A stretch of 64,000 nucleotides of DNA from an uncultured Beijerinckia sp. (lineage in GTDB: Bacteria > Pseudomonadota > Alphaproteobacteria > Rhizobiales > Beijerinckiaceae). Made by a program: the position numbers and the translations under genes. Positions 2,405-30,246 of the stretch are shown here, piece after piece. The notes under the pieces were generated by a model that did not search any database, had not been told where the DNA came from, and worked only from the letters and a program-made list of their open reading frames with translations. The stretch covers positions 868 through 64,867 of the forward strand of contig CAZTMN010000006.1 of assembly GCA_964615275.1 (NCBI GenBank), in the 5' to 3' direction. The number at the start of each line of letters is the position of its first letter. Position 1 is the stretch's first letter.

Positions 2405-3169
2405 ATGGCCGATCTGGATGCCCTGCGGCAGGAACTCGTCACCGCGAACCGCATTCTGGCGATGGAAAACGTGCTCGATTCATTCGGGCATATCTCGTGC
2501 CGGCATCCGGACAATCCGGAGCGCTTCTTCATGTCCCGGGCCCGCGCGCCCGAGGTGCTGGTTGAAGAAGACATCATGGAATTCACGCTGACCGGCGAAG
2601 TGGTTGGCCCAACCCCGGCGCCAGGAAAGCCGTATTCGGAACGCTTCATCCACGGCGCAATCCTGGAAGCGCGCCCTGACGTCGTGTCGGTGATACACAA
2701 TCATTCGCCGAGCGTCATTCCATTCACGGTAACCGGGAAGCGTATGCGTCCGATCATGCATATGTGCGGGCCGATCGGGAACGACATTCCAACATGGGAC
2801 ATTCGCCACAAGTTCGGCGATACCAACCTGCTCGTCACCAACATGGATATGGCGCGGGATCTGGCTTCTACGCTGGGCGGGCGTACCGTTTCGCTGATGC
2901 GCGGCCACGGGTCGGTAATCGTCGGCAAGTCCGTGCGGGAAGTGGTATTCAATGCCAATTACATGGAAAAGAACGCCGACATGCTGATCAAGGCGCTTGG
3001 CATGGGCGAGGTGGAATATCTCTCGGACGGGGAAGTCGAAATCTGCGGCCGTGGCCGGGCCGGCTTTACCCTGGAACGCGGCTGGGAAAACTGGTGCAAG
3101 AAGACAGACCGGCCGTATATCGCCAGGGATTGGGAAATGGGTCCGGGATTTTCAAAGACCGACCAGTAA
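2405..3169 (+). CDS. Class II aldolase/adducin family protein (possibly decarboxylase-type)
   Basis: FGHISCR, SERFIHGAI, SVIHNHS and LMRGHG. RBS GGAGG lies upstream. Confidence 0.88.
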   Translation: MADLDALRQELVTANRILAMENVLDSFGHISCRHPDNPERFFMSRARAPEVLVEEDIMEFTLTGEVVGPTPAPGKPYSERFIHGAILEARPDVVSVIHNHSPSVIPFTVTGKRMRPIMHMCGPIGNDIPTWDIRHKFGDTNLLVTNMDMARDLASTLGGRTVSLMRGHGSVIVGKSVREVVFNANYMEKNADMLIKALGMGEVEYLSDGEVEICGRGRAGFTLERGWENWCKKTDRPYIARDWEMGPGFSKTDQ

Positions 3170-3715: not shown

Positions 3716-4741
3716 CTATTTGATGCCGAGCAGTTTCTGCGAGTTCTTGTAGCAGATCTTTTCCATGTCTTCCTTGGAATAATCGAGCTGCTCCATGATC
3801 GCGATGGTCTCGCGAATGTAGCCGGGACCCTTTTCCGGATCGAACGGGCAGTCGGATGCAAACAGGGCGTTGTCCGCACCGTAAAAGGCAAGCCCGCAGT
3901 CAGTCGCTGCTTTCGAACCGAACACTGCTGTGTCGGCGTAGAATTCCTTGAAGTATTGCAGCGGGCTCTTCTTCATGTTCGCGCGCAGCGTCTTGTAGTC
4001 CTCGTCGGTGGTGCGGTTGCCAAGCTGGTCCCAGCCCGGACCGACACGGCCTTCGAAATAGGGCACCATCGCGCCCAGGTGATGGGCCAGCACTTTCAGC
4101 AGCGGGAACTCGTCCAAAACGCCGCCGAAAACCAGCCGCGCCATCGCGACCGATGTTTCGTAGGGCCAGCCGAAGGTCCACCAGATTTCATACAGGGACT
4201 TCTTCTCGGTCTTGTAGTCCGGAAGATCGAACGCACCGCGCGAGGGATGCAGGAACACCATCTTGTCGTGGGCGGCAGCCACCTCGAAGACCGGCCGGAA
4301 TTCTTCCGCGTCCAGCGGCTTGCCGTTGATGTTGGTGTGAATCTGGACACCGCAGGCGCCGTTCTTGAATGCCCGTTCCAGTTCCTTGGCCGCGTTCGGC
4401 GAATTCATCGGCAGCGAAGCCAGCCAGCCGCAGAAATAATCGCTTTCCTTGGCGCACAGCTCGGCCATCCCGTCATTTCCGAGTTTGGCGAATTCTTCCA
4501 CTTCGGCAGGTTCGCCCAGCGCTTCCAGGGGTGGCATGCCAAGCGAGATGACCTGCGTATAGTCGTACTTTCCGCGGAACAGGTCACAGACTTCCTTGCG
4601 CCGGTCCAGGTCGTAGATGGCCGGGACGCCGCGCATGCGCGAGCCGATATCTGCTGCGGCGCCAGGCGTGGCCATCATCTTGTCCCACAACAAGCTTGGG
4701 AAAAAGTGGTTGAAACAATCGATATAGCGCATTTTTGCCAT
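3716..4741 (-). CDS. Amidohydrolase_2 family protein (ACMSD/aromatic acid decarboxylase-like)
   Basis: IDCFNHF, FLHP, FGWPYET, HHLGAMVPYF and FASDCPFDP. Start MAKMRY at 4741 has RBS GGAGG. Confidence 0.85.
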   Translation of the reverse strand: MAKMRYIDCFNHFFPSLLWDKMMATPGAAADIGSRMRGVPAIYDLDRRKEVCDLFRGKYDYTQVISLGMPPLEALGEPAEVEEFAKLGNDGMAELCAKESDYFCGWLASLPMNSPNAAKELERAFKNGACGVQIHTNINGKPLDAEEFRPVFEVAAAHDKMVFLHPSRGAFDLPDYKTEKKSLYEIWWTFGWPYETSVAMARLVFGGVLDEFPLLKVLAHHLGAMVPYFEGRVGPGWDQLGNRTTDEDYKTLRANMKKSPLQYFKEFYADTAVFGSKAATDCGLAFYGADNALFASDCPFDPEKGPGYIRETIAIMEQLDYSKEDMEKICYKNSQKLLGIK

Positions 4742-4910
4742 GTCCTCCGTTGCAGCCGTTGGGCCGATTTTTGTGTCCGCGCGGACACATAGCGGGGATT
4801 TGACCCCGGGGCAAAGAAATTCAGGCGCTACGAGCGCCGTTTCATGCGCGGCAAGACAGCACGCGCCATCACGGGCATAATCGCGCTGGCAGATTGCGAG
4901 TGGTGGTGAA

Positions 4911-6590
4911 ATGACCCAACAAGCCGATATCATCATCGAAGGGGCCCCGGTCTACGGCGAACCCGCAGCGCCGCACGGAGCCGATGCGGTCGCCATCGGC
5001 GGCGGCCGTATTCTGGCGGCCGGACGCAGCACGGAACTGATTGCACAGCATGGTCCGGCCAAGCGCGTGATCCGGCTGGCCGGCGGCTGCATAATTCCAG
5101 GTCTGATCGACGGCCACGCCCCTCTCGACCGGGAGGGACTGAAGACAATCTGGCCTTCACTCGATGGCGCCAATGACAAGCCGGCGGTTCTCGAACGAAT
5201 CGCGGAAATTGCTGCGCGGACACTTCCGGGGGAGTGGATTGTCACCATGCCCCTGGGCGGCGGCCCGGGCTATGCCGGTATCGACGGGTTCCTGGATGGC
5301 GGTCTTCCCGATCGCTGGGAACTTGATGCGGCCGCGCCTGAAAATCCTGTCTATATCTGTTCGATCTGGGGCTGTTGGCGCCCAAAGCCGCCGCTGGTTT
5401 CGATTGCCAATTCGCGTGCGCTCGCGCTGGCAGGCGTCGATCGCCACACGCGCCCGCCTTCGCCTTTGGTGACGATTGTGCGCGATAACAGAAATGGCGA
5501 ACCAAACGGCGTGTTCCTGGAAGACACGACCATGCCGATCGTTGAACTGACGTTGATGGCCTGCGCCCTGCATTTCACACCGGAGCAACGGGTGGAGGCG
5601 CTGGCCCGCTCCATGTCGATCTACAACGGCTTCGGTACGACCGGTATTTATGAAGGGCACGGCGCTTCGCCTGCCCTTGTGGAGGCTTATCGGCAATTGG
5701 GAGCCCGCAATGGGCATAGCGTTCGGGCGCGGCTGACATTCAGTCCGTCGTGGAGCGGGCAGGACCTGACGATGGCTTCTCAGCTTGTCGCTGACTGGGC
5801 GCAAAGCCTGCGCAAGCGCGGGTCCGACAGTCATTTGATGACGATGGATGGCTTTTACGCCGAGATCGACGAAACCCGCGGCAATTGGGTGCGCGCGCCT
5901 GCTGCGCCGCAAACCGGCTGGGCCGGGTTCAACTATGATTGCGGACTGCCGCGCGAACAACTCAAGCAGGTGCTGGTCGAGGCAGCCCGCAACCGGCTTC
6001 AGGTGTCCTGCATATTCGCTGCCATTCCGCCCTTGTTCGAAGAGATTCACAAGATTGCGCCGATTGACGGCCTGCGCTGGGCCTGGGGGCATATCGGCGT
6101 CGTGAGCGATGACGAAATCCGGCGCGCCTGCGATCTTGGTCTCGTGGTGGTCACCCACACCAACAGGCACATCGGCCGGCAGGGGTCATTGCATCGCGCT
6201 CGGCTCGGTGCGGAGCAGGAGGATACGATTGTTCCCCTGCGCAAGCTCCTTGATGCCGGAGTCCCGGTGTCTTTCGGATCGGACAACGTGCCGCCTTCGC
6301 TGTGGAACCCGGTTTCCCACGCGGTGTCGCGGCGCGACGGCTTTACCGGCGAGGTTATCGCGCCATTGCAAAAGCTGAGTCGCGCCGAGGCGCTTTACTG
6401 CGCAACCTGGAACGCGGCATACCTTTGCGGGCAGGAAGCCGAAACCGGGTCAATCGAGGCCGGTAAGCGCGCCGATATCGTCGTCCTCGACCGGGATTAT
6501 ATGTCCGTTCCGGAAGAGGAAATTCCCGCGATCCGGGCGCAATGGGTAATTTGCGACGGCTCCGTCGTACTGGAGCCGCCAACCGCGTGA
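4911..6590 (+). CDS. Amidohydrolase_3 (YtcJ-like) family protein with atypical metal ligands
   Basis: PGLIDGHA, R-ELD-AAPENPV, GSDNVP and GSIEAGKRADIVVLDRD. The HxH motif reads HAP. Confidence 0.85.
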   Translation: MTQQADIIIEGAPVYGEPAAPHGADAVAIGGGRILAAGRSTELIAQHGPAKRVIRLAGGCIIPGLIDGHAPLDREGLKTIWPSLDGANDKPAVLERIAEIAARTLPGEWIVTMPLGGGPGYAGIDGFLDGGLPDRWELDAAAPENPVYICSIWGCWRPKPPLVSIANSRALALAGVDRHTRPPSPLVTIVRDNRNGEPNGVFLEDTTMPIVELTLMACALHFTPEQRVEALARSMSIYNGFGTTGIYEGHGASPALVEAYRQLGARNGHSVRARLTFSPSWSGQDLTMASQLVADWAQSLRKRGSDSHLMTMDGFYAEIDETRGNWVRAPAAPQTGWAGFNYDCGLPREQLKQVLVEAARNRLQVSCIFAAIPPLFEEIHKIAPIDGLRWAWGHIGVVSDDEIRRACDLGLVVVTHTNRHIGRQGSLHRARLGAEQEDTIVPLRKLLDAGVPVSFGSDNVPPSLWNPVSHAVSRRDGFTGEVIAPLQKLSRAEALYCATWNAAYLCGQEAETGSIEAGKRADIVVLDRDYMSVPEEEIPAIRAQWVICDGSVVLEPPTA

Positions 6591-6769: not shown

Positions 6770-7408
6770 ATGGATGATGACGCCAGGATAGCCAAAGGTG
6801 GCGCGGCCGCCGCCGATATCGGCCACAATTCCGAGGTGCTGGAAGAAAAGCGCGCCTCCATGTACCACAACAAGAAGGACCGGGTATTCGTTCGCGGCTT
6901 CCAGGGAGAATACAACGTAAAGCAGGAGCTGGAGCGCTTGCGCTCGGTGCCGCGGGTTCGCAAGGCCAAGGGCAATTCCTTCATCGACGGCCCGCAATGT
7001 TTCTCGCGTCATTATATAGAGCCGAAGGACGGCATCACCCAGACGTTCCACATGCATCTGGAAGAATATGCCCCCGGCGCCTCCTCGCAGAAGCACGGTC
7101 ACGTGAACGAAGCGGCGTTCTACATCCTTGATGGCGAGGGCTACGAAATTCACGACAACGTCCGCTATGACTGGAAGGCCGGCGATATCGCGATTGTCCA
7201 TAACAATTGCGTTCACCAGCACTTCAACGCGTCGAAGACCAAGCCGGCCCGCGCATTGGTGATCAAGACCAAGCCCATGTACCTGTTCCTGAACATGCTG
7301 TTCCAGAAGACGGTCAAGGAGCGGCCGGTCGATGTAACGCCGGAATGCGAAGGCTTTGTCGCCCGCGAGGAAGAAGAAGACTTCAACCATCCCAAGGGAG
7401 GCTATTGA
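6770..7408 (+). CDS. Cupin domain protein A (gentisate dioxygenase-like monocupin)
   Basis: Motif 1 PGASSQKHGHVNEAAFYILDGEG, motif 2 GDIAIVHNNCVHQHFN. RBS GGAGG lies before the ATG at 6770. Confidence 0.85.
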   Translation: MDDDARIAKGGAAAADIGHNSEVLEEKRASMYHNKKDRVFVRGFQGEYNVKQELERLRSVPRVRKAKGNSFIDGPQCFSRHYIEPKDGITQTFHMHLEEYAPGASSQKHGHVNEAAFYILDGEGYEIHDNVRYDWKAGDIAIVHNNCVHQHFNASKTKPARALVIKTKPMYLFLNMLFQKTVKERPVDVTPECEGFVAREEEEDFNHPKGGY

Positions 7409-7409
7409 T

Positions 7410-8015
7410 ATGGCGTGGGGTGAAGCTACCGCCTGGCTGGAAGGCAAGGAAAACGAACGCAATTACCAGCGCCTGCTTGACGAGGCGCGCGATGCGCCGA
7501 CCCGCAATGCCCGCCGCAAGAAGGTCGTGCGCCCGAGCGAAATGCCCTGGGAAATGGCGCGCCAGGGGCTGCTCAAGCACCTGATGAACGAGACGATGAA
7601 TACCCGCGTCGAGACGATGGATGCTTACATGCAGATCATCCCGCCGGGCTCGCGCTCCGGCAAGCACCGGCACCTGGCCGAAGAATGCGTCTACGTGATC
7701 GAAGGCCGTGGCTACGACATCCATCAGGATTGTGACGTTGAAATCAACGACGTGTTCGAGTGGCTGCCCCAGGACAAGACGCAGAAACTGGAATGGGAAG
7801 CCGGCGATTATATCTATATTCCGCCGATGACCATTCACCAGCATTTCAACGCCGATCCCGGCCAGCCGTGCCGGCTGATTTCCTGCACGGCGCGCATCTT
7901 CCGCCAGATGGGCCTTAACACGCTCGACCAGCTTGAGGATGCCCCGGAATACGATCCCTACGTCATTCTCAACGACGACATCATGCGCGAATACCTGCGT
8001 GGCGAGCGGAAGTAG
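7410..8015 (+). CDS. Cupin domain protein B (paralog of A)
   Basis: Motif 1 PGSRSGKHRHLAEECVYVIEGRG, motif 2 GDYIYIPPMTIHQHFN. It starts 1 nt after the stop of cupin A. Confidence 0.85.
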   Translation: MAWGEATAWLEGKENERNYQRLLDEARDAPTRNARRKKVVRPSEMPWEMARQGLLKHLMNETMNTRVETMDAYMQIIPPGSRSGKHRHLAEECVYVIEGRGYDIHQDCDVEINDVFEWLPQDKTQKLEWEAGDYIYIPPMTIHQHFNADPGQPCRLISCTARIFRQMGLNTLDQLEDAPEYDPYVILNDDIMREYLRGERK

Positions 8016-8159
8016 GGAGTGGCGCGCGCGCCGATAAGGAATATCTGGCGCTTGCGCCGGTAAAATGAGCGCTGCAATATCTGTTGTTGATTGGCCGTCA
8101 GCTATTGGGTTGACGGCCAATTGTTTGGCAAGCGCGCAATGATTGAAGGTAGAAGCCAG

Positions 8160-9335
8160 ATGCCTGAAAACCGCATCCTCACCACCCATGTCGGCTCGCT
8201 AGTGCGCCCGGACGATCTGGCCGGGTTTCTGCGCGCCGCAGAAGATGGCGAGGCGCTCGACAAGGCGGCCTTCGATACCTGTCTGAGCCGTTCGATCGCC
8301 GATGTCGTGCGTCAGCAGAAGGACAATGGCGTCGATATCGTCAGCGATGGCGAGTTCGGCAAGTTCCACAGCTGGTCGCGCTATATCATCGACCGGTTGG
8401 CAGGGTTCGAGGTCAAGACCGAGGAATCGGCCTCCAATCTGAAAAAGGGCGAAGTCATTTCGGCCGGCAACGACCGGCGGATGTTTCCCGAATTCTATGC
8501 CGAATACGACAAGAGCCAGGGGTTTCGCGCCGCCATGGGCACCTGGGTCTGCACCGGTCCGGTCCGCTACACCGGTCAGGAACTGTTGCGCCGTGATATC
8601 GATAACCTCAAGGCCGCCATGGCGGCGGCGGGCGTGGACAAGGGATTTTTGCCCGTCGTTGCGCCGGCCAGCGTCGCGCCGGAGCGCCGCGACGAGCACT
8701 ACGGCAATGACGCGGACTTCATGTTCGGTATCGCCGGGGCGCTGGCGGAGGAATACCGCACGATCATCGAGGCGGGGCTCCATGTGCAGGTCGACGATGC
8801 CCATCTGCCGTTCATGTACGACCGCATGGTCCCGCCCGCCAGCCTGGAGGATTATCGCAAATGGGCGCAGCTCCGCATCGATGCGCTCAACCATGCCCTG
8901 AAAGGCCTGCCGGAAGATCGCATCCGCTACCACATCTGCTGGGGCAGCTTTAATTCCCCCCATGTTGGTGACGTCGCGTTGAAGGATATTGTTGACCTGG
9001 TGTTGCAGGTCAATGCCGGCGCCTATTGCATAGAGGCGGCCAATCCGCGCCATGAACACGAATGGCGGGTTTGGGAGGACGTAAAGCTGCCGGAGGGCAA
9101 GGTGCTCATTCCCGGCGTCATCAGCCATGCAACGAACATTGTCGAGCATCCCGAACTCGTCGCCGAACGCCTGGTGCGCTACGCCGGCCTGGTCGGCCGG
9201 GACAACGTCATGGCCGGAACCGATTGCGGATTTGCGCAAGGTCCGCTGGTGCGCCGCGTTCACCCCTCTATCCAATGGGCCAAACTGGCGGCGATGGCGG
9301 AAGGGGCTGAGATCGCTTCAATGCGGTTGTGGTGA
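8160..9335 (+). CDS. Cobalamin-independent methionine synthase II family (MetE catalytic-core only) protein
   Basis: TTHVGSLVRP, VDIVSDGEFGK, QVDDA and Zn ligands HICWG / E / GTDCGF. About 390 aa, so it lacks the N-terminal half of full MetE. Confidence 0.9.
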   Translation: MPENRILTTHVGSLVRPDDLAGFLRAAEDGEALDKAAFDTCLSRSIADVVRQQKDNGVDIVSDGEFGKFHSWSRYIIDRLAGFEVKTEESASNLKKGEVISAGNDRRMFPEFYAEYDKSQGFRAAMGTWVCTGPVRYTGQELLRRDIDNLKAAMAAAGVDKGFLPVVAPASVAPERRDEHYGNDADFMFGIAGALAEEYRTIIEAGLHVQVDDAHLPFMYDRMVPPASLEDYRKWAQLRIDALNHALKGLPEDRIRYHICWGSFNSPHVGDVALKDIVDLVLQVNAGAYCIEAANPRHEHEWRVWEDVKLPEGKVLIPGVISHATNIVEHPELVAERLVRYAGLVGRDNVMAGTDCGFAQGPLVRRVHPSIQWAKLAAMAEGAEIASMRLW

Positions 9336-9363
9336 ATTCGGTTGCTGTTACAACAACTGCACC

Positions 9364-10947
9364 ATGAGTAGCGACGGTAAAAAGAGCAACAAGATCCACA
9401 CCGCCGAAGATCACATGTTCGGCCAGATGTCCGGGCACGTCCATGCGCCGTGGGAGGATGCCGATCACGATCACGATGCCGATTTCGAATTGCTGGAGGC
9501 CGGTTCCAGGGAACTGGAGCATGTGCCGCTGACGTCGATCGGTATCGATATCGGATCCTCCGGTACGCAGATTGTCTTTTCCAAACTGCTGATGCGCGGT
9601 CCCGGCGAGCCTGTGGCCATGCGGCGCAAGGCCAGGTCGCGCGAAACCCTGCACATGTCCCCGATAGTCCTGACCCCGTATGATCGTAACAACCGGATCG
9701 ACGCGGAGCGGCTGCGTGGATCTCTGGACCGCGCCTATCGGGACGCTGGCCTTTCGCCTGATGATATCGACACCGGTGTGGTCATCATGACCGGTGCAGC
9801 GGCGCGGCGCGAAAATGCGGCGGCCATTATCGAAGCGCTTGCCGCCGATACCGGCGACATTGTTGCAGCCGTCGCGGGCGATCACATGGAGGCGATGCTT
9901 GCTGCTTACGGCTCGGGGGCGGTGGAGCGCTCGGCAGCGGACTTTGCGCGCATCCTCAACGTCGACATCGGCGGCGCCACGACCAAGCTGGCGATCTGCG
10001 ACGGAGGCCGCGTCGTCGCTACCGCGGCCATGCACGGCGGCGGGCGGCAAATCGTTCTTGATTCGAATGACAGGATCATCCGCATCGAGCCGGAACTTGC
10101 AACTTTTGCCGCCAGGCGCGGGATCATATGGCAACAGGGTCTTGCGGTTCACCGCGAAGACGAGGCGATCGTCGCCGCAGCAATGGCGCGCGATCTCATG
10201 GCGGCGATCAAAGGCGACGCTGGCGAATTGGATCAATTCGTCACGGAGCCGATTAAACGCATGGGGAAACTCGACGGCGTGATGTTCTCCGGCGGCGTTG
10301 CCGAATATGTCTACGGCCGCGAAAAACGCGATTTCGGCGATTTCGGCCGGTTGCTGGGGCAGGCGCTGGCGAAAAGCATTGACGCGGGCTGTTTGCCCGC
10401 GCCGCTGCTTCCTGCCGGCGAATGCATCCGAGCCACGGCCCTGGGCGCATCGCAATATTCGGTGCAGATGAGTGGCGCAACGTCCTGCATTACCTCGCAC
10501 GCCAAATTGCTGCCGCGCAGGAATTTGCAGGTCATCCAGCCGGCCTACAGTTTCGCCGGCGATATCGACGCAGATGAGTTGGCCGCTGCGATCCGCGCCC
10601 ATCGCCGCCAGTTCGACGACACCGATCCCGGGCGCGAGATCGCGCTTGCTTTCCGCTGGCGCGGCGAGCCGGAATACGGCCGCGTCCTGCAATGGGCCAG
10701 GGCCATTGCCGCCGCCATGGCCGACAAGATCGCCGCGCGCACCAATCTATATGTTCTTGTCGAAGGTGATACTGCGCTGACCCTTGGTGGAATATTGCGC
10801 CAGGAATTGTCGGTGCAATCGGACATTCTGGTCATTGACGGAATAGTTCTGCGTGATTTCGATTTTGTCGATATCGGCCGTATCCGCCTGCCATCCGGCA
10901 TGGTGCCGGTGACGGTCAAAAGCCTGCTGTTCGCCGCGCCGGATTGA
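9364..10947 (+). CDS. eutA: EutA-like (ethanolamine ammonia-lyase reactivase family) ASKHA ATPase with a His/Asp-rich N-terminal extension
   Basis: SIGIDIGSSGTQ, TGVVIMTGAAARRENA, LNVDIGGATTKL, FSGGVAEY, ECIRATALGASQY and a C-terminal FDFVDIG...VPVTVKSL. Confidence 0.85.
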   Translation: MSSDGKKSNKIHTAEDHMFGQMSGHVHAPWEDADHDHDADFELLEAGSRELEHVPLTSIGIDIGSSGTQIVFSKLLMRGPGEPVAMRRKARSRETLHMSPIVLTPYDRNNRIDAERLRGSLDRAYRDAGLSPDDIDTGVVIMTGAAARRENAAAIIEALAADTGDIVAAVAGDHMEAMLAAYGSGAVERSAADFARILNVDIGGATTKLAICDGGRVVATAAMHGGGRQIVLDSNDRIIRIEPELATFAARRGIIWQQGLAVHREDEAIVAAAMARDLMAAIKGDAGELDQFVTEPIKRMGKLDGVMFSGGVAEYVYGREKRDFGDFGRLLGQALAKSIDAGCLPAPLLPAGECIRATALGASQYSVQMSGATSCITSHAKLLPRRNLQVIQPAYSFAGDIDADELAAAIRAHRRQFDDTDPGREIALAFRWRGEPEYGRVLQWARAIAAAMADKIAARTNLYVLVEGDTALTLGGILRQELSVQSDILVIDGIVLRDFDFVDIGRIRLPSGMVPVTVKSLLFAAPD

Positions 10948-11101
10948 TCCGGGTGCCGCTTGGGCCGTGTCCCATGAATTGGGATGTGATCTGATTATCG
11001 CCGGCGCTTTGCGGATTTTCCGGCGCTTTCTGTACTGTTGACGGAATATCCATTAAATTCAGGTCAGTCTGCGGCGTGTTCGCCGCAAGTCTGGAGTGGA
11101 A

Positions 11102-11629
11102 ATGTCGGGTGCGCATTCAGGTCATGGGCAGACTTCGCCGCCGGAAGCTGGCCGTGCAGGGCAGATTATCGCGGCTGAGATCGCAGCGGCGAAAGACTTC
11201 CTTGGCGCTGACGGGGTCAATGCCGCCGCGCTGTTGCCGGTGCTTCACGCCTTGCAGGCCGAATTTGGCTTCATCGATCCGGCGCTGATCCCCGAGATTG
11301 CGGCAGCCCTCAACATCACCAAGGCCGAGGTGCGCGGCGTTATCAGTTTCTACCATGACTTCCGCACTGCCCCGGCCGGTAAACACACGCTGCGATTGTG
11401 CATGGCGGAGGCGTGTCAGGCCACGGGCTGCAAACGGATCGCCGACCATCTGGCAGACCGCCACGGCCTGAAACCCGGCGATACGACGCCGGATGGATCG
11501 TTGACGCTTCAGGCCGCCTACTGCCTCGGCAATTGCGCACTGGGTCCCGCAGCGATGCTGGATGACCGGCTTGCCGGCCAGTTCGATGAAGCGGCCGTCG
11601 ATGCGCTGATTGCGGAGGTGCGGTCGTGA
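11102..11629 (+). CDS. fdsG: NAD-dependent formate dehydrogenase gamma subunit (NuoE-like, 2Fe-2S)
   Basis: LLPVLHALQAEFGFI, RGVISFYHDFR, CMAEACQATG and CLGNCALGP. Confidence 0.93.
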   Translation: MSGAHSGHGQTSPPEAGRAGQIIAAEIAAAKDFLGADGVNAAALLPVLHALQAEFGFIDPALIPEIAAALNITKAEVRGVISFYHDFRTAPAGKHTLRLCMAEACQATGCKRIADHLADRHGLKPGDTTPDGSLTLQAAYCLGNCALGPAAMLDDRLAGQFDEAAVDALIAEVRS

Positions 11630-13164
11630 GCGCGATCCGGGTATTCGTCCCCTGCGATGCCGCGGCCCTGTCGGCCGGCGCGGATGCAGTGGCGGCCGCC
11701 ATCGCCGTTGAAGCAGCATCCCGCGGTCTGGACGCTGCAATTGTGCGCAACGGTTCGCGCGGCATGTTCTGGCTTGAACCGCTCGTCGAGGTCGAAATGC
11801 CGGACGGGCGCATTGCCTATGGCCCGGTGAAGGTTTCCGATGTGCCGGGCCTGTTTGAGGCCGGGTTTCTGGACGGTAAGGCTCATGATCTTTTGCTCGG
11901 CCCGGCGGAGGAAATCGATTTTCTCAAGCGCCAGCAGCGCCTGACATTTGCCCGCATCGGCGTCACCGATCCCCTGTCGTTTGACGATTATCGCGATCAT
12001 GGCGGCATGGCGGGCTTTGAAAAAGCACGGGCGATGAAATCCGGAGCGATTGTTGAGAAAATAACCGCCTCCGGATTGCGCGGCCGCGGCGGCGCGGGTT
12101 TTCCGGCCGGTATCAAGTGGCGCACGGTGATGGAAGCTGACGCGCTGCAGAAGTATATCGTCTGCAACGCCGACGAGGGCGACAGCGGCACCTATGCCGA
12201 CCGGATGGTGATGGAAGGCGATCCTTTCATGCTGATTGAAGGCATGGCGATCGCGGGTATCGCCACGGGTGCGACCAAGGGTGTCGTCTACATCCGTTCC
12301 GAATATCCCCATGCGATCGCGGCGATGCAAAAGGCAATTGTCATAGCGCGTGACAACGGATTGCTGGGCGCCCATTTCGACATGATCGTGCGGGTTGGCG
12401 CCGGCGCTTACATTTGCGGCGAGGAAACCTCGCTGCTGGAAAGCATCGAGGGCAAGCGCGGGCAAGTTCGGGCCAAGCCGCCGTTGCCGGCCCACAGCGG
12501 CCTGTTTGGCCGCCCGACAATTATCAACAACGTACTGACGCTGGCCGCCGCACCGTGGATATTGACGCACGGCGGCAAGGCCTATGCGGAATACGGCATG
12601 GGCCGTTCGCTCGGCACTATGCCGCTCCAACTGGCCGGCAACATCAAGCGGGGCGGCCTGTTTGAAACGGCGTTCGGCATGACTTTGCGCGAAATCGTCG
12701 AGGATATCGGGGGCGGTACAGCGTCTGGCCGGCCTGTTCATGCTGTCCAGGTTGGAGGGCCGCTAGGGGCCTATTTCCCGGCTGGCATGCTGGATACGCC
12801 GCTCGATTACGAAGCCATGCTGGAGGCCGGTGGCATGCTTGGACACGGCGGGATTGTCGTGTTCGATGACACCGTCGACATGGCGGCCCAGGCGCGTTTT
12901 GCGTTCGAGTTTTGCGCAATCGAGAGCTGCGGTAAATGCACGCCGTGCCGTATCGGCTCGACTCGCGGCGTCGAAACGATTGACAAGATCGTCGCGGGTA
13001 TTTCGCCGGAGGCGAATGCCATGCTCATCGAGGATCTGTGCACCGTCATGACCGACGGTTCGCTTTGCGCTTTGGGCGGGTTGACGCCCATGCCGGTGCG
13101 CAGCGCTCTCAAACATTTCCCGGGGGATTTCGGGCAGGGCGCGAAACGCGCTGCGGCCGAATAG
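11626..13164 (+). CDS. fdsB: Formate dehydrogenase beta subunit (NuoF-like, FMN/NAD, 4Fe-4S)
   Basis: GLRGRGGAGFP, CNADEGDSGT, GAGAYICGEETSL and ESCGKCTPCRIG. GTGA overlap with fdsG. Confidence 0.95.
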   Translation: MSAIRVFVPCDAAALSAGADAVAAAIAVEAASRGLDAAIVRNGSRGMFWLEPLVEVEMPDGRIAYGPVKVSDVPGLFEAGFLDGKAHDLLLGPAEEIDFLKRQQRLTFARIGVTDPLSFDDYRDHGGMAGFEKARAMKSGAIVEKITASGLRGRGGAGFPAGIKWRTVMEADALQKYIVCNADEGDSGTYADRMVMEGDPFMLIEGMAIAGIATGATKGVVYIRSEYPHAIAAMQKAIVIARDNGLLGAHFDMIVRVGAGAYICGEETSLLESIEGKRGQVRAKPPLPAHSGLFGRPTIINNVLTLAAAPWILTHGGKAYAEYGMGRSLGTMPLQLAGNIKRGGLFETAFGMTLREIVEDIGGGTASGRPVHAVQVGGPLGAYFPAGMLDTPLDYEAMLEAGGMLGHGGIVVFDDTVDMAAQARFAFEFCAIESCGKCTPCRIGSTRGVETIDKIVAGISPEANAMLIEDLCTVMTDGSLCALGGLTPMPVRSALKHFPGDFGQGAKRAAAE

Positions 13165-13170
13165 GAGTCC

Positions 13171-16023
13171 ATGTTCATGTCCCTGCAACGCGAGGCAGAT
13201 AGCGGAACACCGATCCGGCAAAGCGGGCAGACCGTGACGCTGGTCATTGATGGCAAATCGGTCAGCGTACCGGATGGAACGTCCGTCATGGCGGCGGCCT
13301 CGGTGGCCGGAAACCAGATTCCGAAATTGTGCGCGACCGACATGCTTGAGGCGTTCGGATCCTGCCGCTTGTGCCTCGTGGAAATTGAAGGGCGCCGCGG
13401 GACGCCGGCGTCCTGTACGACCCCGGCCGAAGACGGCATGGTCGTTCATACCCAGACCCGGCGTTTGCGCGATCTGCGCAAAGGCGTGATGGAGCTGTAC
13501 ATATCCGATCACCCGCTTGACTGCCTGACATGTTCAGCCAACGGTGATTGCGAATTGCAGGACATGGCGGGCGCCGTGGGGTTGCGCGACGTGCGTTACG
13601 GATATGACGGCGAAAAGCATCGCACCGGGGAAGTCGACTCGAGCAATCCGTATTTTTCCTTCGATTCGTCCAAGTGCATTGTCTGCTCGCGTTGTGTGCG
13701 GGCCTGCGAGGAGGTTCAGGGCACGTTTGCACTGACGATCGACAACCGCGGGCTGTTGTCAAAAGTTGCGACCGGCACGGACGATTTCCTGTCGTCGGAA
13801 TGCGTTTCCTGCGGAGCCTGCGTTCAGGCTTGTCCAACCGCGACCCTGAACGAGAAGTCGGTTATCGAATTGGGCACTCCGACCGCGACGACAATTACCA
13901 CCTGCGCCTATTGCGGCGTGGGCTGTTCGTTCCGGGCCGAGACGCAGGGCGACAAGGTTGTGCGCATGGTCCCGCACAAGCAGGGCGGCGCCAACGAGGG
14001 GCATTCCTGCGTCAAGGGGCGCTTTGCGTGGGGCTATGTCAATCACAAGGATCGCATCACATCGCCAATGATCCGCAAGTCAATCGATGATCCCTGGCAG
14101 GAAGTAAGCTGGGAGGAGGCGTTTGAATATGCCGCATCCGAGTTCAAACGCATTCAATCGCAGTATGGCCGCGATGCAATCGGCGGCATTACGTCCTCCC
14201 GCTGCACCAATGAAGAAACGTTCCTTGTACAGAAACTCATTCGCGCCGGTTTCGGCAACAATAACGTCGATACCTGCGCGCGCGTATGCCACTCGCCAAC
14301 CGGCTACGGATTGAAAACCACTTTCGGCACGTCGGCCGGTACGCAGGACTTCAAGTCGGTCGCCAAGGCCGACGTTGTGCTGGTTATCGGGGCGAACCCG
14401 ACCGACGGCCATCCGGTATTTGCCTCGCGTTTGAAGCGGTGCTTGCGCGAGGGCGCCAAATTGATTGTTGCCGATCCCCGCCGTATCGATCTCGTACGCT
14501 CTCCACATATCGAAGCTGCGCATCATCTGGCGCTGCTGCCGGGAACCAATGTTGCGATGATCAACGCGCTTGCCCATGTCATTGTTACCGAGGGCCTGGT
14601 AGACGATGAATTTGTGCGTGAACGCTGCGATGCGCAGGATTTCGAGGTCTGGGCCCGGTTCATCGCGCAGGACATCAATTCGCCGGAAGCGATGGAGTCG
14701 CACACGGGAGTCCCGGCTGCCGAGGTACGCGCTGCAGCTCGCTTGTTTGCAGGCGCTGGCAATGCCGCCATCTATTACGGGCTGGGCGTTACCGAGCATT
14801 CGCAAGGTTCGACCATGGTGATGGGCATGGCGAACCTGGCGATGGTCACCGGTAATCTCGGTCGCGACGGCGTTGGGGTAAATCCGCTGCGCGGCCAGAA
14901 CAATGTGCAGGGCGCCTGCGACATGGGTTCGTTTCCGCACGAGTTTTCCGGGTACCGGCATGTGTCCGATGATGCGACCCGCGACATGTTTGAAAGTCTG
15001 TGGGGCGTATCGCTGCAAAACGAACCGGGCCTGCGCATCCCTAACATGCTCGACGAGGCCGTGAACGGCAGCTTCAAGGGCATGTATGTTCAAGGTGAAG
15101 ATATCGCCCAGTCCGACCCCGACACAAAACATGTCGTGGACGGGTTGAAATCGATGGAATGCGTGGTCATCCAGGACTTGTTCCTGAACGAGACCGCCAA
15201 GTACGCCCACGTGTTTTTCCCCGGGTCGTCGTTCCTGGAGAAGGACGGGACGTTCACCAACGCCGAGCGGCGCATCAATCTGGTGCGCAAGGTCGTCGAA
15301 CCAGCAGCCGGACTGGCCGACTGGGAGATAACCCTGCGGTTCGCTGCAGCGCTTGGCTATCCCATGCACTACGATCATCCCTCGCAAGTCATGGACGAGA
15401 TCGCGCAACTGACCCCGACCTTTGCAGGCGTGAGTTACGACAGGATCGAGGCGATGGGATCGCTGCAATGGCCCTGTAACGATGCAGCGCCGGCAGGTAC
15501 GCCGATCATGCACGTCGATCGTTTCGTGCGCGGCGCCGGCAAGTTCATGGTCACAGAATACATTCCGACCGATGAACGTACTGGTCCGCGTTTCCCGCTG
15601 CTGCTGACGACCGGGCGGATCCTGTCGCAATACAACGTCGGCGCCCAGACCGCCCGTACGGATAACAATGTCTGGCATGATCAGGATGTGCTTGAGATAC
15701 ATCCGTTCGATGCAGAAAACCGCGGCATCCGCGACGGCGATCTCGTGTCTCTCTCCAGCCGCTCCGGTGAAATCAGCCTGCGCGCCGAGATCACCGACCG
15801 CGTGCAGCCGGGTGTGGTCTACACGACTTTCCACCACGCCAGGACCGGCGCCAATGTCATAACAACCGACTATTCCGACTGGGCGACCAATTGCCCGGAA
15901 TACAAGGTAACGGCGGTTCAGGTGCAACGGACGAACCGGTATTCCGATTGGCAACAGGAAGACCGTGAAAACAGCGATCGTTTGCGCCGTATCGAAGGCA
16001 CTTTCAACAATGCCGCCGAATAG
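13171..16023 (+). CDS. fdsA: Formate dehydrogenase alpha subunit (Mo-bisPGD, Cys ligand)
   Basis: N-terminal Fe-S motifs (CRLCLVE, CIVCSRCVRAC, CVSCGACVQACP, CAYCGVGC), plus CARVCH and PLRGQNNVQG. Confidence 0.96.
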   Translation: MFMSLQREADSGTPIRQSGQTVTLVIDGKSVSVPDGTSVMAAASVAGNQIPKLCATDMLEAFGSCRLCLVEIEGRRGTPASCTTPAEDGMVVHTQTRRLRDLRKGVMELYISDHPLDCLTCSANGDCELQDMAGAVGLRDVRYGYDGEKHRTGEVDSSNPYFSFDSSKCIVCSRCVRACEEVQGTFALTIDNRGLLSKVATGTDDFLSSECVSCGACVQACPTATLNEKSVIELGTPTATTITTCAYCGVGCSFRAETQGDKVVRMVPHKQGGANEGHSCVKGRFAWGYVNHKDRITSPMIRKSIDDPWQEVSWEEAFEYAASEFKRIQSQYGRDAIGGITSSRCTNEETFLVQKLIRAGFGNNNVDTCARVCHSPTGYGLKTTFGTSAGTQDFKSVAKADVVLVIGANPTDGHPVFASRLKRCLREGAKLIVADPRRIDLVRSPHIEAAHHLALLPGTNVAMINALAHVIVTEGLVDDEFVRERCDAQDFEVWARFIAQDINSPEAMESHTGVPAAEVRAAARLFAGAGNAAIYYGLGVTEHSQGSTMVMGMANLAMVTGNLGRDGVGVNPLRGQNNVQGACDMGSFPHEFSGYRHVSDDATRDMFESLWGVSLQNEPGLRIPNMLDEAVNGSFKGMYVQGEDIAQSDPDTKHVVDGLKSMECVVIQDLFLNETAKYAHVFFPGSSFLEKDGTFTNAERRINLVRKVVEPAAGLADWEITLRFAAALGYPMHYDHPSQVMDEIAQLTPTFAGVSYDRIEAMGSLQWPCNDAAPAGTPIMHVDRFVRGAGKFMVTEYIPTDERTGPRFPLLLTTGRILSQYNVGAQTARTDNNVWHDQDVLEIHPFDAENRGIRDGDLVSLSSRSGEISLRAEITDRVQPGVVYTTFHHARTGANVITTDYSDWATNCPEYKVTAVQVQRTNRYSDWQQEDRENSDRLRRIEGTFNNAAE

Positions 16024-16870
16024 TCAGCCCGGACGGAATGTGGTCCGAAGTTTCGACGGGATGGCCGTGCGGTACGACGGCGGGGCGGCGGAACCGGGCG
16101 CTCATGCAATAGCCGTCGAAACGCCGGTTAACATAATTTATGGTTCGCTCCCCTTCGCGGTAATGATGGCCAGCCCCGCCGATCTGGAAGACTTTGCCTA
16201 CGGGTTCAGTTTTACCGAAGGCATCATAGACGCAGCGGACGACGTCCGCGATTTCGTAGTTGCGGAAACCGACGCCGGCATAAAGGTATCGCTGACGCTC
16301 AAAGCCGAAAACATGCAGCGGCACCTCGGCCGGGCGCGAAACCTGGCTGGACGCTCAGGCTGCGGCATCTGCGGTATATCCGATCTCTCTGAAATGCCGG
16401 ACATGCCGGCGCTTGCAAATCACGCTGACGGATACGATCCGGCTGCAATAGCGCGCGCGCTGCGCAAGTTGGAAGAGATACAAACGCTCAATGCTGCGAC
16501 CCGTTCGGTTCATGGTGCGGCGTTTTGCAATTGGCGCGGTGAAGTGATCGCGTTGCGCGAGGATGTCGGCCGCCACAACGCGCTTGATAAGCTGGTCGGC
16601 GCGATGCTGCGAAGCGGCAACAGTGCGGCCGACGGATTCGTGCTTATTACCAGCCGCGCCTCCTACGAGATGGTCGAGAAAACCGTGCGTGCCGGGGCGC
16701 CGGTCCTGGTTGCTATGTCGGCTCCGACGTCCCTGGCGATAGAGCGGGCGCAGCAATATGGCCTGACTTTGATCGCGGTCGCACGCGACGATGGCGCCAT
16801 CGCGTTTACCAGCGCAATATCAGCGCGATCGCGGCCACCGCGCAGTGAAACGGGAAAGACACCAGAATGA
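16010..16870 (+). CDS. fdhD: Formate dehydrogenase sulfurtransferase FdhD/FdsC
   Basis: MMASPADLEDFAYGF, SGCGICG, REDVGRHNALDK and SRASYEMV. Confidence 0.93.
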   Translation: MPPNSQPGRNVVRSFDGMAVRYDGGAAEPGAHAIAVETPVNIIYGSLPFAVMMASPADLEDFAYGFSFTEGIIDAADDVRDFVVAETDAGIKVSLTLKAENMQRHLGRARNLAGRSGCGICGISDLSEMPDMPALANHADGYDPAAIARALRKLEEIQTLNAATRSVHGAAFCNWRGEVIALREDVGRHNALDKLVGAMLRSGNSAADGFVLITSRASYEMVEKTVRAGAPVLVAMSAPTSLAIERAQQYGLTLIAVARDDGAIAFTSAISARSRPPRSETGKTPE

Positions 16871-17103
16871 GCGCAGAAAAACTTGTGCGCATGGCCAACC
16901 AGATTGCCGGGTTTTTCCGCACCCAACCGAGGGACGCGGCGGTTGCCGCCGCCGCCGACCACATGAAAAGTTTTTGGAATCCCGTCATGCGCCGGCAGAT
17001 CTACGTCCATCTCGACGCCGGCGGCGATGGTCTGAGCGAACTGGCGCGTGCCGCGGTTGAGATGATGCGCGCTGGCGATGAGCGCGCGGCGGTAAAAACC
17101 TAA
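16867..17103 (+). CDS. fdsD: Formate dehydrogenase delta subunit
   Basis: KLVRMANQIAGFF and HMKSFWNPVMR. ATGA overlap with fdhD. Confidence 0.92.
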   Translation: MSAEKLVRMANQIAGFFRTQPRDAAVAAAADHMKSFWNPVMRRQIYVHLDAGGDGLSELARAAVEMMRAGDERAAVKT

Positions 17104-27484: not shown

Positions 27485-28651
27485 CTAATCCGGTCCGGTG
27501 CGCCCGTCGTTGGCCGCTTCAGCGTCGCCGTTTTCGTCGACGCTCAGCAAGTGCCCGGCGCGTTCGCGTTTGGCCGACAGGTAGCGGACGTTGAAGTCGT
27601 TAAGGCGCCCCTCGATCCGCTGTTCGGCGGCAACGTCGAGGCCCGCGGATTTTAACGCTGCAATCTTGGTGGGGTTGTTTGTCATGATCCGCACCGCTTT
27701 CACCCCCAGCTGGTGCAGCATGCCGGCTGCGAAATCGAACAATCGCTGGTCGCGATCGAAGCCAATCACCTCGTCGGCATCGTATGTGTCGAGGCCGGTG
27801 GCTTGCAGCCGGTAAGCCCGGATCTTGTTGGACAAGCCATTACCGCGGCCTTCCTGGTCCAGATACAGCAGAATGCCGCCGCCGTTGTCCGACATGAATT
27901 TGACCGTCTCGCGCAATTGGTCGCCGCAATCGCATTTCAAACTGCCAAACAGGTCTCCTGTCAGGCAGGCCGAGTGCAGGCGGACGGTCACCGGCTTGCT
28001 CATGTCCGGTTCGCCAACAATTATCGCCACCTGGTCGCGCATTCCCTCGCCGCCGCGAAAGACCACGAATTCTGTATTGTTGGCGTCCTCAAGCGGCACG
28101 GCGGCGCGTGATATAAGCTCGAGCTCTGTTGATTGCTTGCTGCGATAGGCAAGGACGTCGTTGGCCTCGGCAAGCAGCGGATCAAACTGCGGCAGCACGT
28201 TGGCGGAAACTGGCACCACGAGTACGGATGGGTGAACAAGCGCCAAATGGACCAGTTCCAGGGCGGCGAGATCCAGTTTTGAAGCGTTGGCCACTGGAGC
28301 GTCGAACCGCGCCCCCTGCTCCATTGCCAGCATTGCCAGCCGTTCCATATCGATACGGGGCGCGGCGATCACGCCTGGCTTTGCCCGGTCAAAGCCCAGC
28401 CTGCGCAGCCTGGGGGCAGGCAGAACCAGCCTTGGAGTCCGGCGGGCAACCGCTTCCAGTTGCCTGGCCAGCCTCATCGACAGGGCTTCAACGCCAAGCA
28501 CAAGCACATAACTGCGGCCCGAGCGGATCGCTGCGACGCGGCCTGCGCGGATCTCCGCGATGGCCCGCTCAACAGCGATCATGCCGCCGTTATCCGGTGA
28601 AACCCTGGTGCTATCGTCGGTTTTTCTGGAATTTTCTTGATGCTCTGACAC
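27485..28651 (-). CDS. ribA: GTP cyclohydrolase II with a degenerate RibB-like N-terminal domain
   Basis: RLHSACLTGDLFGSLKCDCG, QEGRG, NKIRAY, TNNPTK and RAGHLL. Confidence 0.9.
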   Translation of the reverse strand: MSEHQENSRKTDDSTRVSPDNGGMIAVERAIAEIRAGRVAAIRSGRSYVLVLGVEALSMRLARQLEAVARRTPRLVLPAPRLRRLGFDRAKPGVIAAPRIDMERLAMLAMEQGARFDAPVANASKLDLAALELVHLALVHPSVLVVPVSANVLPQFDPLLAEANDVLAYRSKQSTELELISRAAVPLEDANNTEFVVFRGGEGMRDQVAIIVGEPDMSKPVTVRLHSACLTGDLFGSLKCDCGDQLRETVKFMSDNGGGILLYLDQEGRGNGLSNKIRAYRLQATGLDTYDADEVIGFDRDQRLFDFAAGMLHQLGVKAVRIMTNNPTKIAALKSAGLDVAAEQRIEGRLNDFNVRYLSAKRERAGHLLSVDENGDAEAANDGRTGPD

Positions 28652-28773
28652 TACAACCTCAAGCTGCTGGAGCCATGTTTCTTCACAGCTCCTGATCTAG
28701 ATAGCACGGTAGCGTGTTCCAGCATCCCGGCATCAATAAATTCTGCCACACTTTTTTGTGACGGAATATACCT

Positions 28774-29538
28774 ATGCCGTACCGTGATTATATTGCAAAC
28801 CCGCCTATGGTGTCCGGGAAAAGCCTTAAATCGCCTACCGAGGGGATAGAATTTTTGAATCGAGACACGGTTTACAAGGAAATAATGAACCCATTGTGGC
28901 AAGCCCCGGGGGACAGACCCTTTGTTATTGCCCAGATCGGTCAATCGCTGGACGGCCGCATTGCGACGGCAGGGGGTGACGCAAAAAATGTCGGAGGCCG
29001 CAGCGGACTGGATCAGTTGCACCGATTGCGCGCAAACGTCGATGTCGTCGTTGTCGGAGCTGCAACCGTGCTGGCGGACGATCCGCAACTTACCGTGCGC
29101 CGTGTGTGCGGCTCCAATCCTGCCAGGGCGATCATCGACCCGCACCGCCGTGTGCCCGCGGGCCTGCGATGGCAGGCGGAGAACGGCGTGCGCCGGATTT
29201 TGATTACCAGTAGCGAGCAGCCGGGTTGCACTGAATCCGCAATACATCTGCCTTGCGGCGAAGACGGTATAGCGCCCCGGGAAATTGTGAAAAAGCTGTT
29301 TGCCCTGGGACTGAAAAAGATCTTGATCGAGGGCGGTCCGGCAACCATTCGCCGGTTCCTGCTGGCACGATGCCTGGATCGTCTGCATGTTTGCGTATCC
29401 CCGATGATCATAGGCCCGGGCAAGCACGGCATCGATGTCGATCCGGTACACAGTCTCGACCAGGCATTGCGGCCCGCAACCAGGACATTTCTGCTGGATG
29501 ACGGCGAGGTTCTGTTCGATTGCGACATGCGCGCGTGA
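28774..29538 (+). CDS. RibD C-terminal (pyrimidine reductase) family protein without a deaminase domain
   Basis: QSLDGRIAT, HRLRA, VGAATVLADDPQLTVR and ILIEGG. The start is uncertain. Confidence 0.88.
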   Translation: MPYRDYIANPPMVSGKSLKSPTEGIEFLNRDTVYKEIMNPLWQAPGDRPFVIAQIGQSLDGRIATAGGDAKNVGGRSGLDQLHRLRANVDVVVVGAATVLADDPQLTVRRVCGSNPARAIIDPHRRVPAGLRWQAENGVRRILITSSEQPGCTESAIHLPCGEDGIAPREIVKKLFALGLKKILIEGGPATIRRFLLARCLDRLHVCVSPMIIGPGKHGIDVDPVHSLDQALRPATRTFLLDDGEVLFDCDMRA

Positions 29539-29664
29539 CCGGATTGCCGCTCAACCCGTTGATTGTTATTCAAGCCGGCGGCAGCATGTCGAAATACTTC
29601 GACTTGTGTGCAGGCTCCTGTACTATGTCGTCCTGATCACTCTTGTCCTTCAGGTACATTGTCT

Positions 29665-30222: not shown

Positions 30223-30246
30223 TCTTCTGGGATCGATCTTCGCCTG

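Follow-up and report, generated by a model that had tools for sequence, protein, structure and literature searches.

Two cupins and a EutA-like ATPase in one locus

Positions 6,770 to 10,947 of the DNA considered here, a stretch of 64,000 nucleotides (nt) of contig CAZTMN010000006.1 from an uncultured Beijerinckia sp. (this whole stretch is called the window), hold four genes on the + strand: two cupin genes, cupA and cupB, a MetE-like gene and a EutA-like gene (Table 1). Canonical EutA draws on ATP to replace cobalamin, a metal cofactor, when this is damaged, and an earlier sequence-only reading of the window had proposed that the EutA-like protein serves another client. The four genes with their short gaps are present essentially where that reading placed them, as Pfam and an independent public gene call on the same DNA agree (the latter with identical lengths of 212, 201, 391 and 527 amino acids, aa). 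The terminator scan gave no terminator-like site on the + strand between the four genes, and the promoter scan of the locus gave nothing. No RNA runs containing the locus were found, and the window DNA was found only in salt-marsh and marine metagenome DNA runs. An antisense open reading frame (ORF) of 474 aa (9268–10692, − strand) shadows the EutA-like gene and outscored it in a crude gene calling based on codon composition. No family supports this ORF, which we read as a GC-rich shadow; the + strand gene was accepted over it because Pfam and the independent gene calls support the former.

Both cupins have complete HxHxxxE...H metal sites, with H109-x-H111-x3-E115 ... H149/H151 in cupA (metal residues invariant in 38 homologs) and H-R-H-x3-E ... 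H-Q-H in cupB. The two are distant paralogs (25% identical, E 2e-15). In related loci, cupB always begins 1–5 nt after cupA and, in one Streptomyces locus (L063; L numbers denote fetched loci), cupA and cupB are fused into one 351-aa protein. On these comparative grounds, we regard CupA and CupB as the probable halves of a split (heteromeric) bicupin. Three further classes, the bicupins B1, B2 and B3, were recognized by the clustering of the neighbors of EutA-like genes elsewhere (Table 1).

The nearest solved relative of cupA is the C-terminal cupin of the gentisate 1,2-dioxygenase of Silicibacter pomeroyi (3bu7, E 3.6e-7), which cupB matches with E 1.7e-6; sequence searches of the PDB gave no close relative of cupA, cupB, B1 or B2. 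More generally, the best relatives of all these cupin classes are the cupin domains of gentisate dioxygenases and, for cupA, cupB and B1–B3, the gentisate 1,2-, salicylate and 5-aminosalicylate dioxygenases (3bu7 with E 1e-6 to 1e-7; MabB model at 36 bits or less). Gentisate-type dioxygenases are bicupin ring-cleaving Fe(II) enzymes. The classes described here share with them the HxH...WHxH-type motifs, a bicupin architecture (probable for the split pair) and the aromatic-catabolic context, and differ from them by their scores (19–36 bits vs. cut-offs of 442–650), by a 3His+Glu site in both halves and by the split genes. With TIGR02272 and NF049978, cupA and cupB score 19–31 bits, below the cut-offs of 442 and 650, and none of the classes found beside EutA-like genes reaches the gentisate or 5-aminosalicylate dioxygenase cut-offs (19–36 bits).

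The EutA-like protein covers positions 3–474 of the 475 of the PF06277 model (347 bits vs. a cut-off of 27) and aligns with E. coli EutA end-to-end from residue 56 onward (residues 56–525, 31% identity). The motifs of the ASKHA (acetate and sugar kinases/Hsc70/actin) ATPases, D62/G64, D201/G203/G204/T206 and G310/G311, are invariant and are kept in all EutA groups compared in alignments. The AlphaFold2 (AF2) model (mean predicted local distance difference test, pLDDT, 77) has the two-lobed, RNase-H-like ASKHA fold, with fold matches to PPX/GppA, PilM, HgdC and MreB (E 1e-10 to 1e-7); PDB sequence searches found no solved structure of the EutA family. Automatic annotations and databases label such proteins EutA. 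The window protein is, nevertheless, below the cut-offs of all four NCBIfam EutA equivalogs (NF007991–NF007994), with scores of 294 vs. 598 (the best), 213 vs. 769, 199 vs. 952 and 160 vs. 799.

A branch of the EutA family that accompanies cupins

The absence of eutB, eutC or any other B12 enzyme from the 64 kb, stated in the sequence-only reading, was borne out: with the E. coli proteins as tblastn queries, the window gave no EutB or EutC match at E≤1e-3, and Pfam gave no B12-dependent enzyme among the 39 called ORFs (a few small ORFs were left out). The comparison was extended to 80 genomic loci (1.36 Mb in total) of Alpha-, Beta- and Gammaproteobacteria and Actinobacteria around relatives at least 50% identical to the window EutA-like protein and, as controls, to 77 loci around relatives of E. 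coli EutA, treated with the identical tblastn; gene calling in the fetched loci was homology-guided. EutB and EutC were detected in 76 of the 77 canonical loci and in none of the 80 loci of the clade. Canonical EutA of one haloarchaeon and of Listeria also adjoins eutBC. In a neighbor-joining tree of 107 sequences, all the eutBC-linked EutAs (archaea, Firmicutes, Proteobacteria) split from a cupin-linked superclade that holds the window protein. The identity to the window protein is 30–36% for canonical EutAs, 36–41% for two subtypes devoid of a histidine tail and 50–75% within its own subtype (H-type); a database search with it gave 6671 relatives.

On this comparative evidence, the window protein is very probably not an ethanolamine ammonia-lyase reactivase and falls in a separate, widespread branch of the EutA (PF06277) family. 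That it is an ordinary EutA, reactivating an adenosylcobalamin-dependent ethanolamine ammonia-lyase encoded elsewhere in the genome, would suit the full-length Pfam match and the automatic labels. We hold this to be most improbable in view of the ~31% identity to E. coli EutA, the scores below every equivalog cut-off, the separate clade, the contrast in eutBC between the two samples, the proximity of eutBC to canonical EutA even in archaea and Firmicutes, and a His-rich motif that canonical EutA does not have (see below).

The co-occurrence of this clade with cupins, which the sequence-only reading had named as a support, was observed. Among 92 true EutA-like genes, 66 have a cupin no more than five genes away and 45 directly adjoin one (many contigs end early), and tblastn found the window's cupins in none of the 77 control loci. 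A cupA-cupB pair 65–95% identical to that of the window directly precedes the EutA-like gene in about 30 of the 80 loci; for cupA, the identity in relatives beside EutA-like genes is 65–96%. The pairing also follows the subtypes in the tree: the H-type occurs with cupA/cupB or B1, the tail-less type with B2 and a third type with B3. A scan for the B2-type ATPase gave 25 loci, with B2 directly upstream at a gap of ~15 nt in all 24 complete ones; the genera are Phyllobacterium, Sinorhizobium/Ensifer, Aminobacter, Brucella (B. anthropi), Rhizobium and Paracoccus. Rhizobium sp. P32RR-XVIII has both an H-type and a B2-type cupin/EutA-like pair in one genome.

Could such adjacency be without functional meaning, through inherited synteny or hitch-hiking in mobile catabolic islands? 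Many loci come from related metagenome-assembled genomes (MAGs), so that the locus counts are not independent, and the insertion of the MetE-like gene (see below) indicates that the operon accepts passengers. We nevertheless consider this very unlikely, since the pairing is found again in four groups at the level of phylum or class, where the flanking genes differ and both gene orders occur, and it spans at least four cupin classes, each with its own EutA-like ATPase subtype.

The cupins are much better conserved than the ATPases, as is usual when an enzyme has an accessory factor. When the window is compared with L001, its closest relative, the identities are 92% for cupA, 95% for cupB and 74% for the EutA-like protein; among the B2 loci, the cupins are 85–100% identical and their ATPases 67–96%.

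The MetE-like protein behaves differently. It scores 38 bits with Pfam Meth_synt_2 (cut-off 21) and, at best, 85 vs. 576 with the NCBIfam MetE models, and it matches PDB 1ypx (E 5e-10); its translation has H-x-C and D-C-G motifs consistent with a Zn site. The window and its two closest relatives (L001/L162 and L002/L161) are the only loci with this gene between cupB and the EutA-like gene, so that the four genes are not a conserved unit. The family, named 'methionine synthase II family protein' in the sources, is very large (all of the at least 8000 scored candidates were at E≤1e-10). The three homologs sampled are surrounded by other catabolic genes (variously a Rieske oxygenase, amidohydrolase_2, CMD, glyoxalase, SnoaL, and transporters of the tripartite ATP-independent periplasmic, TRAP, or tripartite tricarboxylate, TTT, type), with no EutA-like gene or cupAB nearby. 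We view the gene as a lineage-specific insertion encoding a passenger catabolic enzyme, not a conserved partner of the EutA-like gene. Because of this insertion in few relatives and of the large independent family elsewhere, the MetE-like enzyme, which the sequence-only reading had offered as a candidate client, is unlikely to be one and was dropped.

Histidine-rich segments, permease fusions and neighboring genes

The 55 residues that precede the Pfam domain of the EutA-like protein are predicted to be disordered in the AF2 model, yet they are strongly conserved. Across 35 aligned homologs (52–78% identity), H12, H17, G20, H25, H27, D34 and H35 never vary, and D16, H37 and D38 vary hardly at all; of 81 H-type sequences, at least 94% retain the residues of this His/Asp motif, which are absent from the canonical EutA sequences of the alignment. 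The pattern HxxxDHxxG occurs in 113 of the 115 top database homologs, and the His motif is present in nearly all of the 120 best-scoring of the 6671 relatives, whose identity to the window protein is never below 52%. When the 61-residue N-terminus was run with phmmer against 1.84 billion proteins, no link to a known metal-binding domain emerged, the matches being only EutA-like N-termini and low-complexity His/Asp proteins. At the other end, a poly-His tail with up to 39 His follows a conserved 'VTIKSLVFSEDPR' in 48 of the 80 loci, and such C-terminal tails are found beyond the subgroup of the window protein. Both the N-terminal motif and the tails are putative metal-binding segments. The B2 bicupins (L047:5553–6776, L082:7696–8934) start with a His-containing N-terminal motif (..THWHEPAG..), and in the B2 pair the metal-binding segment may be on the cupin enzyme rather than on the ATPase.

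In three independent betaproteobacterial MAGs (L038, L044 and L054), the EutA-like protein is fused to a double ATP-binding cassette (ABC) permease, giving ~1180 aa, and an ABC ATPase gene follows each fusion (Table 1). The permease is FbpB/PotBC/PhnU2-like, and in sister loci the EutA-like and permease genes are separate and adjacent. The fused importer was not adopted as evidence for a metal importer, the system being of the PhnS2T2U2/Pot/Fbp-like type. A second EutA paralog of ~581 aa, which would have suggested a EutA heterodimer, was considered and rejected: these sequences are double ABC permeases, which clustered with EutA because the three genuine fusions pulled them in.

The main rival reading, modeled on the hydantoinase/acetone-carboxylase type of ASKHA enzyme, makes the EutA-like protein a catalytic or structural subunit of an ATP-dependent cupin complex, where ATP would be spent at each turnover and a metal bound to the His-rich segments would have a catalytic or structural part. 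ASKHA ATPases do serve as catalytic subunits in other systems. The intact ATPase motifs, the generic ASKHA fold matches and the tight, subtype-specific pairing (with, in the 24 complete B2 loci, a gap short enough to suggest translational coupling) would all agree with it. Four observations make it unlikely to us: the cupins evolve far more slowly than the ATPase; in isolate genomes, the ATPase gene may stand apart from cupAB; metal-handling accessory proteins, rather than catalytic subunits, typically have long disordered poly-His tails and a fusion to a membrane permease; and the nearest family function, that of EutA, is one of reactivase.

Genes for nickel or cobalt uptake accompany some of the pairs. 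In Phyllobacterium, a HoxN/NixA permease and NikR follow the cupin/EutA-like pair (plasmid NZ_CP104971 and six further genomes), a canonical HoxN is beside split cupins in L043, and a NiCoT-like permease occurs in seven betaproteobacterial loci. Pfam scans of the window ORFs gave no HoxN, NikR or NiCoT-like gene. Between hoxN and nikR of L082, at ~11619–11646, there is a NikR-box-like inverted repeat, GTATGAT-N14-ATCTTAC, to which we attach little weight; no such repeat was seen upstream of the cupin gene.

An operon for an NAD-linked formate dehydrogenase follows the EutA-like gene of the window (Table 1). This arrangement occurs in a single subclade (the window, L001, L003, L004, L005 and L227, and L007 with FdhD only) and is treated as a lineage-specific synteny. 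The EutA-like protein could, alternatively, be a general cytoplasmic metal-buffering, storage or transporter-coupled protein or, in the window lineage, a helper of formate dehydrogenase, in which case the cupin adjacency would only reflect shared regulation within catabolic islands. The position directly upstream of fdsGBACD in this subclade goes in that direction, and so does the fact that, in Beijerinckia sp. and Terripilifer ovatus, the EutA-like gene stays between uvrC and the fds operon with cupAB far away. The H-type genes with no cupin in the flank, the ABC permease fusions and the neighboring NiCoT genes are compatible with general metal handling. On the other side, most loci of Alpha-, Beta- and Gammaproteobacteria and of Actinobacteria are with cupins and without fds, a general buffer would not track particular cupin classes as the paralogous EutA-like subtypes do, and cupin and EutA-like genes still co-occur in the genomes where they are unlinked. 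We give this alternative a low probability.

The other neighbors point to catabolism. An amidohydrolase_2 gene, divergent from cupAB in the window, is upstream of cupA in about 20 related loci (67–92% identity) and occurs in the B2-cupin clusters of Sinorhizobium/Ensifer and Aminobacter (60–66% identity). A solute receptor of the TctC type, other TTT transporter parts and a class II aldolase/adducin-family protein are further recurrent companions; the last is nearest to the 3,4-dihydroxyphthalate decarboxylase PhtC (91 bits, below the cut-off). In other lineages, the companions are IclR or LysR regulators, a Rieske oxygenase with ferredoxin and reductase, a flavin monooxygenase, UbiD and thiamine pyrophosphate (TPP) enzymes. 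By its gene content, the set would be an island for the catabolism of aromatic or related carboxylates, and the cupin enzyme is probably a C–C or ring-cleaving dioxygenase of that island.

Table 1. Positions of the genes and segments discussed (window coordinates unless a locus is named) and cupin classes found beside EutA-like genes
Feature	Position	Strand	Description
cupA	6770–7408	+	212 aa; GGAGG ribosome-binding site (strong Shine-Dalgarno); Cupin_2, 52 bits
cupB	7410–8015	+	201 aa; 1-nt gap after cupA stop; Cupin_2/Cupin_7 (Pfam)
MetE-like gene	8160–9335	+	391 aa; alternative start at 8139; Meth_synt_2, 38 bits
EutA-like gene	9364–10947	+	527 aa; PF06277, 347 bits
N-terminal His/Asp motif of EutA-like protein	9397–9477	+	H12, D16, H17, G20, H25, H27, D34, H35, H37, D38
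Amidohydrolase_2 (ACMSD/decarboxylase-type metallohydrolase)	3716–4936	−	Pfam, 105 bits; divergent neighbor of cupAB
TctC-type solute receptor	1126–2187	−	Pfam; recurrent neighbor across loci
Class II aldolase/adducin-family protein	2405–3169	+	Pfam; recurrent neighbor across loci
fdsGBA-fdhD-fdsD, NAD-linked formate dehydrogenase operon	11096–17103	+	Pfam, NCBIfam; 148 nt downstream of EutA-like gene
hoxN/nixA + nikR	L082:10476–12078		Phyllobacterium zundukense plasmid NZ_CP104971; immediately after cupin/EutA-like pair
EutA-like::permease fusion	L038:4486–8025		poly-His linker of 60–90 residues
EutA-like::permease fusion	L044:2509–6051		poly-His linker of 60–90 residues
EutA-like::permease fusion	L054:9968–13564		poly-His linker of 60–90 residues
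B1 bicupin			372 aa; beside EutA-like genes (neighbor clustering)
B2 bicupin			~407 aa; beside EutA-like genes (neighbor clustering)
B3 bicupin			383–404 aa; beside EutA-like genes (neighbor clustering)

Elsewhere in the window, a response-regulator-PAS-GGDEF-EAL gene (40086–42304, − strand) appears broken, with the EAL domain split over two overlapping ORFs (40637–42304 for model positions 3–74 and 40086–40700 for positions 78–236), which suggests a frameshift or an assembly error. A bacterial alpha-2-macroglobulin of 1775 aa is beside a PBP1C-type penicillin-binding protein (698 aa, with BiPBP_C) at 42505–49928 (− strand), the usual A2M-Pbp1C pair. A family III CoA-transferase and a TPP enzyme are near each other on the + strand (55215–56384 and 58950–60707); they could be a formyl-CoA transferase/oxalyl-CoA decarboxylase-like pair making formate, on the contig that also holds the fds operon. 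Finally, the region 27485–33725 encodes a GTP cyclohydrolase II-domain protein, a RibD_C protein, a 6-pyruvoyl-tetrahydropterin synthase, a Zn-dehydrogenase-like protein and glycosyltransferases, and may be a module related to pterins or modified nucleosides.

A candidate ATP-dependent metallochaperone for cupins

Our preferred reading, to which we give a probability of roughly 0.55, is that gentisate-dioxygenase-like cupins, in the present case CupA/CupB, have in the EutA-like protein a dedicated ATP-dependent metallochaperone or reactivase. The elements of this reading, namely the clade separation, the lack of eutBC, the subtype-specific cupin association, the His-rich segments, the ATPase motifs and the occasional Ni/Co genes, were computed directly. 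The suggestion of a client other than ethanolamine ammonia-lyase is thus strengthened by the clade, the missing eutBC, the cupin co-occurrence and the His-rich segments, with the cupins as the probable client, although the adjacency is not universal.

From these elements we infer a physical interaction, a metal, a direction of metal transfer and a type of substrate, as follows. The disordered N-terminal His/Asp motif would capture a divalent metal, for which Ni(II) is the likeliest candidate and Fe(II) or Co(II) the alternatives; in relatives, the C-terminal poly-His tails would add to this capture. The ATPase core would dock on the cupin, where the binding and hydrolysis of ATP would give access to the buried 3-His/1-Glu site by opening or remodeling it; the correct metal could then be inserted, or an oxidized or wrong metal exchanged. 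Such an exchange would be the metal-ion counterpart of the ATP-driven exchange of damaged cobalamin by EutA. The cupin would then act on an aromatic or other carboxylic acid, beside the TTT transporter, the amidohydrolase_2 and the aldolase-II-type decarboxylases.

Several points weigh against a dedicated metallochaperone or reactivase. A reciprocal scan centered on cupB gave 36 new loci, and only about 17 of them have a EutA-like gene within 10 kb. The conserved adjacency assumed in the sequence-only reading is thus frequent but not constant: in Beijerinckia sp. GCA_900104955.1, the EutA-like gene and cupAB sit on one contig, at 5.68 Mb and 0.06 Mb, respectively, and in Terripilifer ovatus they are on different contigs. 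Since the genes are unlinked in these two cultured organisms, cupAB and the EutA-like gene co-occur without constant co-transcription. Several H-type genes have no cupin in the fetched flank (e.g., L028, L042, L058, L070–L075), and upstream there are, for example, three pyrroloquinoline quinone (PQQ) dehydrogenase genes or an S10-like peptidase gene. The EutA-like partners of the B2 and B3 cupins are without a His tail, and metal delivery by the tail cannot, therefore, be the whole story. The cargo of the fused or adjacent ABC system, which is of the PhnS2T2U2/Pot/Fbp type, may be an organic compound instead of a metal. The nickel link amounts to about three independent lineages, and Ni or Co is hinted at, not established. 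The AF2 model of cupA is poor (pLDDT 56), the alignment being too shallow. To our knowledge, the gentisate-type dioxygenases described so far use Fe(II), need no chaperone and have no dedicated ATPase partner, and full-text searches of a literature library gave no paper linking EutA homologs with cupins, His-rich tails or nickel.

The dehydrogenase genes just mentioned (L070:4299–9672, also in L071 and L075) are three tandem genes for PQQ-dependent methanol/ethanol-type dehydrogenases (573–596 aa), directly upstream of a His-tailed EutA-like gene; no cupin is in the flank.

With EutA of E. coli and Salmonella (PF06277), the window protein shares the family, the fold over the whole core, the ASKHA ATP-binding motifs and, probably, the character of an accessory ATPase encoded beside its client enzyme. 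It differs from EutA by a separate clade, below the equivalog cut-offs and never beside eutBC in the loci examined, by the 55-residue N-terminal His/Asp segment (often with a C-terminal poly-His tail in relatives) and by its neighbors, which are cupins, decarboxylase-type hydrolases, transporters and, sometimes, Ni/Co uptake genes.

Another comparison is with the nucleoside triphosphate (NTP)-hydrolyzing accessory proteins that are found beside their client metalloenzymes: the G3E nucleoside triphosphatases (NTPases) UreG, HypB, CobW/ZNG1 and MeaB, and CooC. G3E metallochaperones are often His-rich and sometimes next to NiCoT or Nik transporters. The G3E family holds both a chaperone of a B12 enzyme (MeaB) and chaperones for metal ions (UreG, HypB, CobW), in parallel with EutA and the window clade. 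The fold there is that of a P-loop GTPase, here that of an ASKHA ATPase, with no sequence similarity between them, and we know of no G3E-family member that serves cupin enzymes. In concept, XylT-type ferredoxins are also close. The reactivation of catechol 2,3-dioxygenase by XylT is likewise due to a small accessory protein of an aromatic-catabolic operon, which restores an inactivated ring-cleaving dioxygenase. By contrast, XylT, a [2Fe-2S] ferredoxin, works by reducing Fe(III) in place, without ATP and without a His-rich metal-binding tail, and acts on an enzyme of another fold.

The metal that a cupin binds is the one at hand during its folding, and we know of no dedicated chaperone for a cupin. 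The selection of metals by cytoplasmic cupin enzymes is an open problem in protein metalation. In one article (PMC11742986), the Mn-cupin MncA is used as a 'metal trap'. A dedicated ATPase for cupins would be an accessory NTPase or reactivase with a new combination of fold and client, a novelty suggested by evidence that is comparative throughout. A broader proposal, which we advance tentatively and with less than even confidence, is that the His-tailed EutA-like proteins are the first ASKHA-fold metallochaperones, which would metallate cytoplasmic cupin dioxygenases as ATP-driven insertases or exchangers, plausibly with nickel, some of them coupled to a membrane importer. The EutA family would then consist of ATP-driven exchangers of tightly bound metal cofactors, either cobalamin or bare ions, and cupA/cupB and B1–B3 would be new, possibly Ni-dependent, C–C-cleaving enzymes acting on carboxylates or aromatics.

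Culturable carriers exist in Phyllobacterium, Sinorhizobium/Ensifer, Beijerinckia sp., Terripilifer ovatus and Streptomyces spinosisporus. If the metallochaperone reading is true, the interest for the field of metalloprotein maturation would be high. The heterologous expression of such cupins would follow a simple rule, the co-expression of the partner ATPase. Soil, freshwater and salt-marsh bacteria would be marked as carriers of four uncharacterized classes of cupin enzymes, a function would be found for the thousands of proteins whose present label, ethanolamine-utilization factor, is wrong, and a new fold would join the short list of metallochaperone NTPases.

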